Positions 1,823-51,897 of a DNA stretch of 64,000 nt are shown one piece after another. The notes below the pieces were generated by a model. That model ran no database searches. It saw only the letters and a list, made by a program, of their open reading frames with translations, and was not told the origin of the DNA. Every line of letters begins with the position of its first letter. The first letter of the stretch is position 1. Source of the DNA: Schmidtea polychroa (taxonomy: Eukaryota); contig CM097885.1 of NCBI GenBank assembly GCA_044892525.1, positions 35,590,001 to 35,654,000 of the forward strand, given 5' to 3'. The translations under genes and the position numbers were made by a program.

Positions 1823-2935
1823 TCATTTTACTAGGTCTTTTGACGATATCCATGACGGGTTTTGATAACCGTGCCATTTGATATAGTATTGTTTATCCTT
1901 ACCGACCTTTTTAGTTTTCAATATTTTTTGAATTCTAAATACTTTTGGGGGAGGAATGACTTGTAATTCCTGCTCATAAAATTTCCCCTGTACAATATTA
2001 TTATCATTGTCTTTGATGACATACATTACAGGATTCTGTTTAGTATTTATTTTTGAAATTACAAAGACTTCATCACTCCAATTTGTATCAAAATTTTTAA
2101 TAAATGGTGATGCACTAATTTTACTAATTCTAACATGATCACCGACTTTATATTTAGGTTTTGTAATTTTTACAGATTTCTTAGAAGTCAATGATGTTTT
2201 TGATGTAATATCAACCGGTCTCAATCCATTCAGTCCTCGATGTGATGAATGATTATAACTTGTTGTTATTTTCGGTAAAGCATTTACCCATTTTTTATTA
2301 CCTTGATGCACGAACAATTTCTTTAATCGATCTCTCAATGTTCGATTAAATCTTTCAACATGGGCAGCTTTGTATTGAGAATGTACCGAGTAGTGATTTA
2401 TTTTCAGTTTATCGAGGATTTGCTTAATTTTGCTATTGTAGAATTCTTTACCTAAAATAATAATAATAATAATAATAATAATAATAATAATAATAATAAT
2501 AATAATAATAATAATAATAATAATAATAATAATAATAATAATAATACCTAAATCTGTTTGCAAGTTATTAGGATGTCCATCTTTAAATAAAATATTAATT
2601 GCCTTGGACATTTCTTCTGCAGATTTTGCCTTGACTGGTATTGCTCGTGCAAACCTGCTGTATACATTAATACATGTTAAAATATATTTATTCCCATTGT
2701 TAATTTTCGAATAGGGTATCATCTCCATCAAATCCATTTGCCATAAATCGTCAATACCAAATGTTTTATAGGCTCTTGTTGGAAATTTTTTCCGCATTGG
2801 TTTGTTCAAACTGTACGCAAGCTGATCTGATAACCACTTCTGGGTTTCTTTTTTCGAATTCGGAACTCTTTTGTTTAATTTTGCCACTCCACTGAAACCG
2901 GCTTCGTCTTCTGGGTTCGTCCAAATCTTCTCCAT
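1823..2935 (-). CDS. Polinton retroviral-like integrase with C-terminal chromodomain; intron 2452-2547
   Basis: DDE motifs WQMDL, LQTDLGKEF (restored after splicing) and VERFNRTL; chromodomain FRIQKIL...YYIKWHGY. Confidence 0.93.
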   Translation of the reverse strand: MEKIWTNPEDEAGFSGVAKLNKRVPNSKKETQKWLSDQLAYSLNKPMRKKFPTRAYKTFGIDDLWQMDLMEMIPYSKINNGNKYILTCINVYSRFARAIPVKAKSAEEMSKAINILFKDGHPNNLQTDLGIIIIIIIIIIIIIIIIIIIIIIIIIIIIIILGKEFYNSKIKQILDKLKINHYSVHSQYKAAHVERFNRTLRDRLKKLFVHQGNKKWVNALPKITTSYNHSSHRGLNGLRPVDITSKTSLTSKKSVKITKPKYKVGDHVRISKISASPFIKNFDTNWSDEVFVISKINTKQNPVMYVIKDNDNNIVQGKFYEQELQVIPPPKVFRIQKILKTKKVGKDKQYYIKWHGYQNPSWISSKDLVK

Positions 2936-2996
2936 TACAACAAGAAGATTTAAAATTAAATTTAATGTCGGGCAATGAAGGATTAGCACCCATTGT

Positions 2997-3530
2997 TTAT
3001 GATTGATTTCCTACAACTCCACCTAATAATGATAATGCCAGAGGTATCAATGCACCAATAAATCCACCTTGTTGTTTATATATAATTTTCCTCATTTGCT
3101 TACGATTTTTATTATTTACTAAAGATAATAAAGGTTTCCTATGTTTGCTCAATAAATGCTTTTTTGATTTACTGATTTTAATTTTGCCTTTGACTACTTT
3201 AAGTATATTATTGAGTAAATCATCGACAACAAAATTTGGGAATGATTGCAATATATTCATTCTTTTCATACTCGGGGCCTTTAACAATGCATTAAAAAAT
3301 GGAAAACTGCAATGATTTTTAACTACTTTTTTACTGGTTTTACGGGTTTTACGGGTTTTACGTTTAGGTTTAGGATTTTTCGAAATAAGATTCATTGCAG
3401 AGAAATTTTCAGTTACAAGTTTTTTAGATGGTGTATAACTAGTTGTTGGTGGAACCTTTGGAACTTTAATAGTCTTTCTAATACCTTTTCTTAATTTCCT
3501 AATATTTTTCACCCTTGCTTTTAGAAACAT
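2997..3530 (-). CDS. Basic virion core-like protein ending QQGGF plus hydrophobic helix
   Basis: K/R-rich 177-aa ORF between ATPase and INT, with a putative adenain-type cleavage site QQGG|F. Confidence 0.7.
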   Translation of the reverse strand: MFLKARVKNIRKLRKGIRKTIKVPKVPPTTSYTPSKKLVTENFSAMNLISKNPKPKRKTRKTRKTSKKVVKNHCSFPFFNALLKAPSMKRMNILQSFPNFVVDDLLNNILKVVKGKIKISKSKKHLLSKHRKPLLSLVNNKNRKQMRKIIYKQQGGFIGALIPLALSLLGGVVGNQS

Positions 3531-3548
3531 TATTATTCATAGAGGTTT

Positions 3549-4168
3549 TCAACTTTGTTTATAAACCATGGCACCTTTTGGGTTGAAAATATCTGTTTTT
3601 ACTCGTAAATCATCGGGACATTGTTGTGTGAAATCAAGAAATATATATCCATGAGGTATTTTTGTTGCATCTTGAAATGCACTGATAAGAAAATTACGAT
3701 TGTTAGGGTATGCTTGACGTGCAAGAAAATCAATCACTGTTGCATCTCTAGGATTCTTGAAAATAACTAAATATTGTACATTTAAATTACGTGTTCGATG
3801 TGCCCCACCTTGATGAAATAGATTTTGTGTTATGAAAATAACTGTTACACCGACATGTCTGCTGATCTTTGTAAATAAATTATTAAAATCTTTTTCTTTA
3901 TTAGCTTCTTGATACAAATCATCAATAATAATGACATCACCCTTCTTTAATCGGCTGGACCAGTTTTTATCAAATCCCTTTACTATTTTCATGTTTTTTA
4001 ATTTACAGAAACTTGATTGAGTTAATCTTCATCAGCACCTCTATGCCAATAAATCCTGCTGAATTTTGATTTGAATAAATTGGATTTTAGTAATTTACAA
4101 ACAAATAATGTTTTTCCACTACCACTCGGACCAACGATTTGGTATACAGCATCATTTCTTAATTCCAT
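3549..4168 (-). pseudogene. Packaging ATPase (A32/FtsK-like), frameshift near 4025
   Basis: Walker A GPSGSGKT, Walker B IIIDDL and ITQNLF motif; small deletion relative to the copy at 50770-51327. Confidence 0.9.
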
Positions 4169-4267
4169 TTCAAAGATTTTATAAATGTGTATTTGTTTAT
4201 ATTCGATGATTTAATGAACTCGTGCTCAATTTATATGTAAAGACTAATTTTCATAAATGATTTAATA

Positions 4268-4705
4268 ATGTTAGCAAATATAAATTATCGAGGAAATTTT
4301 GATGTATCGAATATGAGGTTCCCACCAGGGAAACCCCAGCAAATTATCGATAGAAGTGGGAAATATCCGATAATATTTTTCAAGACTGGTAAATGCCGAA
4401 TCATGGGATGTAAGAAACCTTTGGATATTAATAAATTACAATATCGAATAAATAATATTACAATCCAATCAATTACCGTTACTATGGATATGGGACATAG
4501 TATCAATCTATATAACATGTCGAAAAAATGTGATTGTATGTTTGAACCGCAATTGTTTCCGGCACTAAGACTATTAAAATATAACCCTATATGTGTCAAC
4601 GTGTTTGCTAGTGGAAAGGTTGTCATGCTGGGGTTGAGAAATTTGGAGTATAGAGAATTTGTTGACAATGTTCGAAATGAGATAATTTCATTGGTCGATT
4701 TCTAA
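4268..4705 (+). CDS. TATA-binding protein (TBP)-like protein, Polinton-encoded
   Basis: Two TBP-repeat signatures: IFFKTGKCRIMG and FEPQLFPALRL...VNVFASGKVVMLG (compare YEPELFPGLIY...LIFVSGKVVLTG). Intact 145 aa. Confidence 0.85.
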   Translation: MLANINYRGNFDVSNMRFPPGKPQQIIDRSGKYPIIFFKTGKCRIMGCKKPLDINKLQYRINNITIQSITVTMDMGHSINLYNMSKKCDCMFEPQLFPALRLLKYNPICVNVFASGKVVMLGLRNLEYREFVDNVRNEIISLVDF

Positions 4706-4768
4706 TTGGTTAATTTCTAATTGGTTATTGATTGATATAAACAAACGGTTTTTTGTTTAGGATTCATT
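4690..4768 (+). promoter_or_regulatory. Pol II-type promoter (3x ATTGG, TATAAA at 4736, TCATT initiator-like)
   Basis: Canonical spacing ahead of the ATG at 4780. Confidence 0.5.
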
Positions 4769-4779
4769 TTTTCAACACC

Positions 4780-50525: not shown

Positions 50526-50526
50526 T

Positions 50527-50765
50527 TTACTTTACAAAATCTTTTGCTGATATCCATGTAGAGTTTTGATATCCATGCCATTTCACATAGTATTGTTTAT
50601 CCTCACCATTCTTTGTAGTTTTCAATATTTTTTAAATTCTAAAATCCTTTGGTGAAGGAATGACTTGTAATTCTTGTTCATACAATTTCCCTTGTACAAT
50701 ATTTTGATCATAGTCTTTAATGACATACATTACTGGATATTGTTTAGTATTGATTTTCGAAATTA
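50527..50765 (-). pseudogene. Integrase C-terminal remnant
   Basis: ISKINTKQYPVMYVIKD...YEQELQVI and chromodomain, close to the element B INT. Confidence 0.85.
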
Positions 50766-50769
50766 TCAG

Positions 50770-51327
50770 GAATTTGTTGAATGAAATCAAGAAATATATA
50801 TCCATGAGGTTGTTTTGTAGCATCTTGAAATGCATTTATCAGAAAATTACGATTATTTGGATATGGCTGTCTTGCAAGAAAATCAATAACTGTTGTATCT
50901 TTAGGGTTTTTACAAAAGAACAAATATTGAACATTTAAATTGCGAGTTCTATGTGCACCGCCTGATGAAATAAATTTTGAGTTATAAAAATAACCGTTAC
51001 ACCAACGTGTCTACTAATTTTGGTAAATAAATTATTGAAATTCTTTTCTTTATTAGCTTCTTGATACAAATCATCAATAATTATGACATCTCCCTTCTTT
51101 AGTCTACTGTACCACTTTTTATCAAATCCCTTTACTATTTTCATATTTTTTAATTTACAGAAATTATCGTGAGTCAATCCGTGTTCTTCATCAGCACCTC
51201 TATGCCAATAAATTTTGTTAAATTTTGATTTGAATAAATGTGATTTTAGTAATTTGCAAACAAACAAAGTTTTCCCACTACCACTTGGTCCGACTATTTG
51301 ATAAACAGCATCATTTCTTAGTTCCAT
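50770..51327 (-). pseudogene. Packaging ATPase, frameshifted and 3'-deleted
   Basis: GPSGSGKT, IIIDDL and ITQNLF motifs. Confidence 0.88.
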
Positions 51328-51349
51328 TTTAATATGTATATTTAAAAAT

Positions 51350-51464
51350 TGATATTGTTTATATCGTAAAGGATAAAATGTTTTAATTATACTATTATAA
51401 TATATATATATATATATAATAGTATAATTAAAACATTTTATCCTTTACGATATAAACAATATCA
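51350..51464. repeat. 115-bp palindrome with (TA)n loop
   Basis: tgatattgtttatatcgtaaaggataaaatg... is mirrored exactly. Confidence 0.92.
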
Positions 51465-51469
51465 CTTTT

Positions 51470-51897
51470 TTTAGCTAGTCTAATCATCATACTCCATCCA
51501 CCATGAGCATCGACCTATGGCATAATTTTTGATTCAGTAATCTAATTAATGATGATGTCCATTTGATCAATAAAAATAATACCTCTACAGACCATTGAAA
51601 ATAATTTTCAAAGTCTGAGCCCGATTTTTCTAAAATATGTTTCATAAAAATGAAACCTATAATAATTCGAGACCATGTAATTTCATCATCGAATAATGTA
51701 TAAAATATTTCCTCGAATAATTTTTTCTTTTGTTGAACTGTTTCCAAATTGATGATAGTGTCGTACTCGATATGATTATCTTCAATGATTTTTTCTGTGC
51801 GATTAACAAGGAATTGTAGATTATTAATCACATCGTTAGTTTCTTTGTTGGATACAAGACCATTCAATATGTCAATCATAAATGCTGTTTGCGTCAT
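51470..51897 (-). pseudogene. Bcl-2-family gene, 3'-truncated; intron 51542-51582
   Basis: LFDDEITWSRIIIGF; exon 2 reads ITESKIMP*VDAHGGW. Confidence 0.85.

Follow-up and report, generated by a model that had tools for sequence, protein, structure and literature searches.

Candidate spliceosomal introns at shared positions in genes of a Polinton clade of Schmidtea polychroa

Are the short GT..AG segments that interrupt the genes of Polintons in one stretch of the Schmidtea polychroa genome introns, and if so, have they been inherited with the elements or acquired copy by copy? The window is 64,000 nt long (assembly GCA_044892525.1, contig CM097885.1, positions 35,590,001 to 35,654,000), and coordinates below refer to it. 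Ten such segments were listed in the initial annotation (one in INT, two each in the Cys ORF, Bcl-2, protease and SPIWKI genes, one in the acidic ORF), and all have the GT..AG ends and lengths given there. We think it reasonably probable, at about two chances in three and on sequence data, that they are ordinary U2-type introns, which the host spliceosome would remove from nuclear transcripts, and that a Polinton clade acquired them and copies them with the element. This reading rests on positions that stay fixed, GT/AG ends, internal lengths that change freely, a size like that of host introns, and occurrence in thousands of copies.

The elements and their copies

The window contains the following Polinton sequences:

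1807 to 8394: element B, the left arm of a ~19-kb family, truncated just past INT by the end of another element
23118 to 33877: element C, a copy of a ~14-kb family, internally deleted and rearranged, without ATPase and INT
Fragment D′, degraded, with recognisable intron sites in the Bcl-2, acidic-ORF, SPIWKI and Cys-ORF genes (the outermost at 34902 and 36649)
41464 to 52659: element D, degraded and rearranged, with terminal inverted repeats

Element B carries INT, a core-protein-like ORF, ATPase, a TBP-like gene, the Cys ORF, SPIWKI, the acidic ORF, a Bcl-2-like gene and a terminal repeat. The idea that B and C are halves of one bipartite element fails, as copies of full length carry all genes, those of the C family having both ATPase and INT. 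Nor is the break near 4025 in the B ATPase an intron; it is a short deletion.

Over two thousand copies of this intron-bearing Polinton/Maverick are present in the genome, and its amplification is active. The elements share with other animal Polintons (vertebrate and Caenorhabditis Mavericks, adintoviruses) a length of 14–19 kb, terminal inverted repeats beginning AGTAG and 6-bp target duplications, which here flank full-length members of the B, C and F families (e.g., B51, B59, B65, C35, F83, F85, F89). The gene set is also shared: an rve integrase with chromodomain, A32-like ATPase, C5 protease, double jelly-roll capsid and, probably, a protein-primed-type PolB. Bcl-2 homologues are reported for adintoviruses (PMC8502044).

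The gene assignments vary in strength. In Pfam searches exon 1 of INT matches rve and exon 2 chromo, each below the curated cut-off when split; protein searches gave 793 rve homologues of INT at E <= 1e-20 and no INT protein near-identical to that of element B. The protease match to Peptidase_C5 is above cut-off, and matches are weak for Pox_A32, DJR-like, the MCP of C (PF21738) and the Bcl-2-like gene (PF00452, E 0.002). The minor capsid gene is assigned by position only. Two window pieces of PolB gave no Pfam match; what we take to be the PolB motifs were picked out of the window translation by eye. PolB frames in intact copies run to 1,300–1,430 codons.

The window copies are damaged by frameshifts and stops, and the INT segment of B is a bare microsatellite. 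The segments might thus be nonfunctional, either insertions and microsatellite expansions in dead copies or introners inserted after integration. The latter is the main pattern that one report gives for dinoflagellate maverick-polinton-like elements, in which spliceosomal-type introns inside full-length elements belong to repeated introner families and mostly postdate integration (PMC11957031). Here, in contrast, introns of one gene look unlike those of another when those inside the elements are compared by eye, so that each appears to have a sequence of its own, and the same codon position is kept across families despite different interiors. The GT/AG ends are kept in nearly all copies, and the segments also occur in young full-length copies with terminal repeats, 6-bp duplications and intact frames. 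We therefore hold the nonfunctional reading to be highly improbable.

Protease and integrase introns

The core enzyme genes give the largest counts, with chance judged by comparing genome-wide pattern counts with reversed-pattern controls:

27142 to 27182, plus strand: protease intron of C, 41 nt, phase 2, after coding nucleotide 5 (ATG at 27137); GT..AG in 20 of 20 copies
47858 to 47894, minus strand: protease intron of D, 37 nt, after coding nucleotide 5
2452 to 2547, minus strand: INT intron of B, 96 nt, phase 1, splitting the Gly codon of the catalytic motif QTD-x-G-x-E

The protease pattern has 2,388 matches genome-wide and none in the control. After coding nucleotide 5, GT..AG ends were found in 77 of 81 rows (36–47 nt; some loci were fetched twice), and many of the lengths are not multiples of 3. 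Between distant families the interiors are mostly near shuffled controls, in keeping with the proposal that sequences diverged while positions stayed. A search for intronless protease copies in the host genome gave 2 pattern matches against 1 in the control, neither a protease. The spliced register puts the protease Met 17 residues ahead of a conserved motif, and 81 of the 126 motif-bearing homologues (157 were examined) begin 15–19 residues before it.

The same intron extends beyond the host genome. It is present in six of seven environmental relatives carrying the protease gene, and is thus common to the host-genome clade and an environmental sister clade whose protease is 47–58% identical. 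The protease start is contiguous in a more distant environmental contig, L205. A 68% identical protease from a 507-nt contig (P0210) begins in the spliced register; that contig may be intronless DNA or RNA.

The INT pattern (40 to about 70 nt) has 527 genome-wide matches, with 0 in the control. In B the segment is GT, 30 ATT units and TTAG, a pure ATT microsatellite, in frame and free of stops. The initial annotation held that the segments restore reading frames; at INT, removal mends the catalytic motif and not the frame. Exon 2 of INT is 98–100% identical in all 150 scored matches while the segment ranges from 45 to 162 nt; over 30 loci with that range, 28 have GT..AG. The same codon is split in families B, G and U (microsatellite), C (43 nt), F (42 nt) and D (about 40 nt), among which the INT proteins are about 70–80% identical. 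Overall, intron positions common to different elements and families, as originally proposed, are far above chance. Not every copy may be spliceable: the B-type segment is always in frame and stop-free, and in 30 genomic copies the INT segment (B, C or D form) is shorter than 40 nt, down to about 20 nt.

Outside these families the INT intron is missing from the sequences compared. None of the 24 homologues aligned, out of the 793 matches, has the insert, nor does any of 38 environmental contigs, a count that may be biased by seeding the scan with intronless INT proteins. It is likewise missing in the nested host-genome family H. Thirteen intronless INT junctions are not processed copies of B, C or F; they belong to a separate family at 72–77% identity. 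One change is enough to explain the INT intron in 46% of bootstrap trees, too few to fix a single origin, and family H shifts its position between gene trees. Scans of viral contigs with INT found no relative.

Polymerase leader and accessory genes

For PolB of element C the initial annotation was wrong in reporting no intron, since introns are predicted upstream of the main frame:

27736 to 27786, plus strand: first predicted PolB-leader intron of C, 51 nt, phase 0 (ATG at 27688); GT..AG in 18 of 18 copies; not listed earlier
27956 to 29050, plus strand: long predicted PolB intron of C, 1,095 nt, phase 1; GT..AG in 14 of 15 copies; not listed earlier
29051 to 33000, plus strand: main PolB exon of C, without internal intron; premature stops in this copy at 29128–29130 and 30499–30501
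47374 to 47327 and 47251 to 47206, minus strand: two predicted PolB-leader introns of D, 48 and 46 nt, both phase 1

The leader comprises 1 to 9 coding exons, varying between families. In C these exons join the main exon in a consistent frame, and they do so in a B copy too, across nine introns. The long intron, which contains the SPIWKI gene in antisense, is the least secure of those predicted: its donor is weaker in D and G, the third leader exon of D has stops, and the upstream exon of family F is out of frame from any ATG tried. The E2B polymerase of adenovirus has a short spliced first exon. The two arrangements are alike in that small upstream exons and a long intron spanning another gene open a protein-primed polymerase gene; they differ in that the leader here has up to nine coding exons and host-sized micro-introns, and the likeness is one of layout.

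The accessory genes are as follows, with the MCP of C for comparison:

4832 to 4880, plus strand: Cys-ORF intron of B, 49 nt, phase 1, 22 nt past the ATG at 4810
24498 to 24542, minus strand: Cys-ORF intron of C, 45 nt, phase 1, at the codon that is split in B; GT..AG in 5 of 6 copies, GC..AG in 1 of 6
36611 to 36649, minus strand: Cys-ORF intron of D′, 39 nt, placed where B and C have theirs, read by eye
5468 to 5878, plus strand: uninterrupted SPIWKI ORF of B, with about 33% identity to the C-type gene
28531 to 28580, minus strand: SPIWKI intron of C, 50 nt, phase 0; GT..AG in 16 of 18 copies; family F has 40 nt at this site
28745 to 28789, minus strand: extra 5′ SPIWKI intron of C, 45 nt, phase 1 (ATG at 28805)
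35765 to 35814, minus strand: SPIWKI intron of D′, 50 nt, position as in C
6029 to 6069, plus strand: acidic-ORF intron of B, 41 nt, phase 1
35245 to 35284, plus strand: acidic-ORF intron of D′, 40 nt, position as in B
6656 to 6699, minus strand: Bcl-2-like intron of B, 44 nt, phase 0
51542 to 51582, minus strand: Bcl-2 intron of D, 41 nt, position as in B
34902 to 34957, plus strand: Bcl-2 intron site of D′, acceptor AG lost
25848 to 27074, plus strand: MCP of C, a single open frame without intron

The element introns in general measure 36–51 nt and most lie less than 50 nt from the start codon. In a predicted host set, candidate chaperonin introns are AT-rich and mostly 42–49 nt (18 of 27 distinct rows). 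A search for host GPCR genes gave one match. In an unrelated Polinton lineage of the same genome the INT, ATPase and protease frames are uninterrupted, and the intron pattern is therefore lineage-specific.

The SPIWKI gene had been described as having the intron in C and D but not in B. The B ORF is indeed uninterrupted, but at 33% identity the two genes are deeply diverged homologues; the comparison does not show a simple gain or loss and is weak evidence of turnover. Better evidence comes from the INT absences (the environmental contigs and family H) and from the Cys intron, missing in all five copies of family F. An Atlas search with SPIWKI gave no usable match.

Gain, loss and possible use

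The protease intron common to the two sister clades, together with the INT and Cys absences, supports the view that the lineage has long borne introns and has gained or lost some of them. That it forms virus particles, as the word viral in the initial annotation could imply, is conjectural. One way to account for the family differences is an intron-rich ancestor followed mainly by losses, whether by reverse transcription or by precise deletion. The bias of the introns toward 5′ ends and the nested absences in H and F are in keeping with this, as is an environmental contig (L195) with three short introns at the 5′ end of PolB and one in SPIWKI. Its SPIWKI intron, however, sits elsewhere than that of C, L205 has its contiguous protease start, and the contigs and proteins that surround the host-genome families on the tree all lack the INT intron, so that many losses would be needed. 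We consider such an ancestor distinctly improbable.

Under the U2-type reading that we prefer, the clade would have gained its introns one after another. The protease intron would have come early, when the sister clade seen in environmental DNA had yet to split off, and the INT intron later, at an AG|GT proto-splice site. The polymerase and integrase of the element would then have copied them along with it, and they would be kept because integrase, protease or polymerase would be lost on mutation of a splice site. Loss would be rare and by precise deletion, as in the INT gene of H and the Cys gene of F. The start-proximal bias fits retention for an expression benefit, without proving it.

The introns may instead be a control device, in which retention or splicing gates protease, integrase and polymerase (e.g., germ line versus soma, early versus late) while the capsid genes stay splice-independent. 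Introns are found in enzyme and accessory genes, whereas no family examined has one in the capsid (MCP, minor capsid), ATPase or TBP-like genes; both MCP ORFs of the window are single open frames, as first described. The INT intron divides a catalytic motif, and a retained protease intron leaves a two-codon ORF ending in a stop, a layout kept across distant relatives; the P element and adenovirus would be precedents. The immediate stop, however, is explained by a phase-2 intron with a consensus donor. Moreover, donors are mostly strong consensus, interiors are unconserved, and family H without the INT intron and F without the Cys intron have both spread. We judge a control function unlikely, and the earlier suggestion that splicing is used for regulation is unsupported.

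The P element is a DNA transposon containing introns. CACTA is another (PMC4158355). Both are, like the present elements, nuclear DNA elements whose enzyme genes have inherited introns, with gain and loss between families, but they are cut-and-paste transposons without capsid or polymerase genes. Among Polintons, core genes are reported intronless in vertebrates (PMC8097293), and in a nematode Maverick introns are described in cargo genes only, the core being intronless (bioRxiv 10.1101/2022.07.12.499685). Here INT, protease and PolB are themselves interrupted, so the intronless-core trait does not hold. In the literature searched, introns at conserved positions are nowhere described for the core genes of Polintons, though Repbase records, subscription papers or supplements may contain such a description.

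It can thus no longer be taken for granted that each core Polinton gene is one ORF. Surveys that rely on ORFs would score such elements as broken and count too few intact copies, overlooking the start of the protease and misplacing that of the polymerase. The introns would also imply nuclear, host-spliced transcription for the clade. A bolder extension, tentative and on balance doubtful, is that a widespread animal polintovirus clade with its own TBP-like factor built splicing into its life cycle; the start-proximal protease intron, conserved over ~50% protein divergence, and the variable multi-exon PolB leader would be host-controlled switches for replication and maturation, the capsid genes staying unspliced, and the young high-copy families would show intron birth at a proto-splice site, microsatellite takeover and precise loss. 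With thousands of copies, several datable families, and gain and loss at the same sites, the element is unusually tractable for studying how spliceosomal introns arise and disappear.

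Polinton elements of the window and of the genome

The window is AT-rich and gives Pfam matches to integrase, chromodomain, TBP and C5 protease, and weak ones to A32 ATPase, Bcl-2 and double jelly-roll. It holds the following Polinton copies and fragments:

ends at 1806 and 13388: a pair of terminal fragments from a single Polinton family
1807-8394: element B
23118-33877: element C
about 33900-37450: degraded patch D'
about 41464-52659: element D

In the source genome (781 Mb, four large contigs), protease and integrase (INT) queries returned 5,333, 7,003 and 3,617 first-look candidates, and 150 of each were scored. 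Terminal repeats and 6-bp target duplications mark full-length copies of families B (about 19 kb), C (about 14 kb) and F (about 16.5 kb); B and C of the window are truncated or rearranged members of their families. In element C, the TBP and Cys genes adjoin the 3' part of the minor capsid gene (24030-24966), a junction due to an internal deletion that took out ATPase and INT.

The TBP-like gene (PF00352, E about 1e-14; 4268-4705 and 24596-25036) is present in all families examined and in several environmental contigs. Family F (L081-L090) has two tandem minor-capsid genes. The environmental contigs L172 and L180 show two as well, and L180 has an ORF at 225-722 resembling, by eye, a ubiquitin-conjugating (E2) enzyme. 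Some copies are palindromic (L131-L132; left arm mirrored, 99% identity over 4.4 kb), and inverted, opposite-strand pairs are frequent among the genome matches. Between Polinton remnants of the window lies a single-exon rhodopsin-like GPCR (39573-40649; 7tm_1, Srw weak). Degraded transposase remnants, recognised by eye at 18860-19830 and 54025-54390, are presumably Tc1/mariner-like and hAT-like.

Anatomy and conservation of the predicted intron segments

The anatomy, conservation and spread of the segments can be read directly from the copies. All ten segments that the initial annotation had called introns, in the INT, Cys, acidic, Bcl-2, protease and SPIWKI genes, have GT..AG ends and the lengths assigned to them. 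Across C-family copies these ends are conserved in the protease (20/20), SPIWKI (16/18) and Cys (5/6) genes, the sixth Cys copy being GC..AG. Most of the predicted introns lie 5-48 nt downstream of the ATG; the second SPIWKI intron and those of INT (388 nt) and Bcl-2 (297 nt) depart from this rule. The major capsid (MCP) ORFs show no introns in the families examined, in line with the initial annotation of the window's copies, and none were seen there in the minor capsid, ATPase, core-protein-like and TBP-like genes. The SPIWKI intron, recorded in C and D and not in B, had been offered as an example of gain or loss; the contrast is weak, since the B- and C-type genes share no more than about 33% identity.

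The protease segment directly follows coding nucleotide 5 in 77 of 81 rows (some loci entered twice) and is 36-47 nt long regardless of frame; deletions or rearrangements account for the other four rows. Genome-wide, its pattern has 2,388 matches vs. 0 for the reversed control. The intronless junction gave 2 matches vs. 1 for its control, neither a protease. After splicing, the Met would stand 17 residues ahead of the conserved motif; among 126 motif-bearing homologues, 81 start 15-19 residues ahead of it. A public metagenome protein (P0211), near-identical to the B-family protease, is translated through the intron, and thus environmental DNA also contains B-like elements with this intron.

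In INT, one and the same codon is split in B/G/U (GT, ATT repeats, TTAG), C (43 nt), F (42 nt) and D (about 40 nt) by segments with different interiors, which agrees with the earlier description of shared positions and diverged sequences. The site is contiguous in 24/24 aligned homologues, the closest 24 of 793 matches. In 30 B-family loci the segment varies from 45 to 162 nt next to an exon 2 that is 98-100% identical; it is always in frame, and very short in some other copies, two weak points of the intron reading. Longer microsatellite forms aside, the genome has 527 matches to the INT pattern at 40 to about 70 nt and 30 below 40 nt. In family F both junctions are spanned by a direct repeat of 11 nt, through which the intron could have arisen by duplication or been precisely deleted; convergence on the splice consensus would account for the repeat equally well.

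The PolB leader and host comparisons

The PolB frame of element C had been taken to lack introns. This does not hold, as two predicted introns connect the main exon, in frame, with exons upstream:

27736-27786: predicted PolB intron 1, phase 0
27956-29050: predicted PolB intron 2 (long), phase 1, with the SPIWKI gene inside, antisense

No start codon lies ahead of the conserved N-terminal Cys/His block of PolB, and an acceptor-like AG precedes the block in B, C, D, F, G, U and H. The fit is poorer for degraded D and for the upstream exon of F. In one B copy the long intron is preceded by nine predicted leader introns, all of phase 1, and none of the exons contains a stop. Five of the nine lie in a tandem 141-bp exon-plus-intron repeat (L061-L062 pair, about 10770-11630), where introns were multiplied by duplication; of the 15 B/G/U elements examined, this copy alone has the repeat (1/15).

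Candidate host chaperonin introns, predicted at alignment ends, are AT-rich and 42-49 nt long in 18 of 27 distinct rows. A multi-copy repeat (L235-L247) matches positions 311-454 of chaperonin family PF00118 at many loci and may represent either a captured fragment or a PIKfyve-like domain. The genome also holds a second, unrelated Polinton lineage (L033 plus L122; L274-L279), with INT 36% identical, 150/150 scored matches 95-100% identical, and nested here inside a C-family copy. Its INT, ATPase and protease frames are uninterrupted in the copies checked (a non-exhaustive set), and therefore the trait belongs to one clade. We read the segments as introns because of this confinement, the likeness to candidate host introns, the shared position and changing interior in INT, and the frame-ignoring lengths and Met register in the protease.

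Gain, loss and meaning

Among the 49 environmental contigs retrieved with an INT alignment, 38 cover the INT site, uninterrupted in every case (38/38), in a scan possibly biased towards intronless INTs. Six of seven protease-carrying contigs have the intron after nucleotide 5 (a near-duplicate pair among them); in the seventh, L205, the protease is contiguous. L195 has three short introns in the PolB 5' end. On the MCP tree the families of this genome form a clade (100) sister to these environmental contigs (100); L205 and L188 branch outside. The protease intron occurs on both sides of this split, which it would therefore predate.

On the INT tree, which lacks family D, the INTs with the intron are nested within those that have none (88/92), and the intron may have had one origin or several. 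The INT-intronless family H (13 junction matches vs. 0 for the control; 10 examined) retains the introns of the protease, Bcl-2 and acidic genes and of the PolB leader. In the MCP tree and both INT trees it sits within the intron-bearing families, at differing places, and its INT state would reflect a single loss or parallel gains. All F copies (5/5) lack the Cys intron, which C (the sister of F), B, G, U and D have, most simply suggesting loss in F.

Intact vertebrate Mavericks are reported to have no introns, consistent with Kapitonov and Jurka, 2006 (PMC8097293), whereas this clade has predicted introns in core enzymes. In the portions available, other sources describe a nematode Maverick with intronless core genes and introns in cargo (bioRxiv 10.1101/2022.07.12.499685), introners, secondary for the most part, in dinoflagellate elements (PMC11957031), Bcl-2 homologues in adintoviruses, splicing unmentioned (PMC8502044), and Maverick expansion in planarians (bioRxiv 10.64898/2025.12.11.693146). 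In the accessible parts of PMC10748475, PMC12220804, PMC11244446, PMC11071296, PMC6431247, PMC11410931 and bioRxiv 10.64898/2026.01.28.702291, spliceosomal introns of core Polinton genes are not mentioned, and we found no prior description of them in the open literature (Repbase, subscription papers and supplements aside).

Host polymerase II would transcribe the element genes and U2 splicing would remove the introns, which may be inherited through the element's own replication, with purifying selection probably acting on splice sites. Introns would be gained stepwise and rarely lost. Splicing as regulation is a less likely possibility. We regard the feature as real: a Polinton clade with inherited, host-sized predicted introns in its core enzymes.
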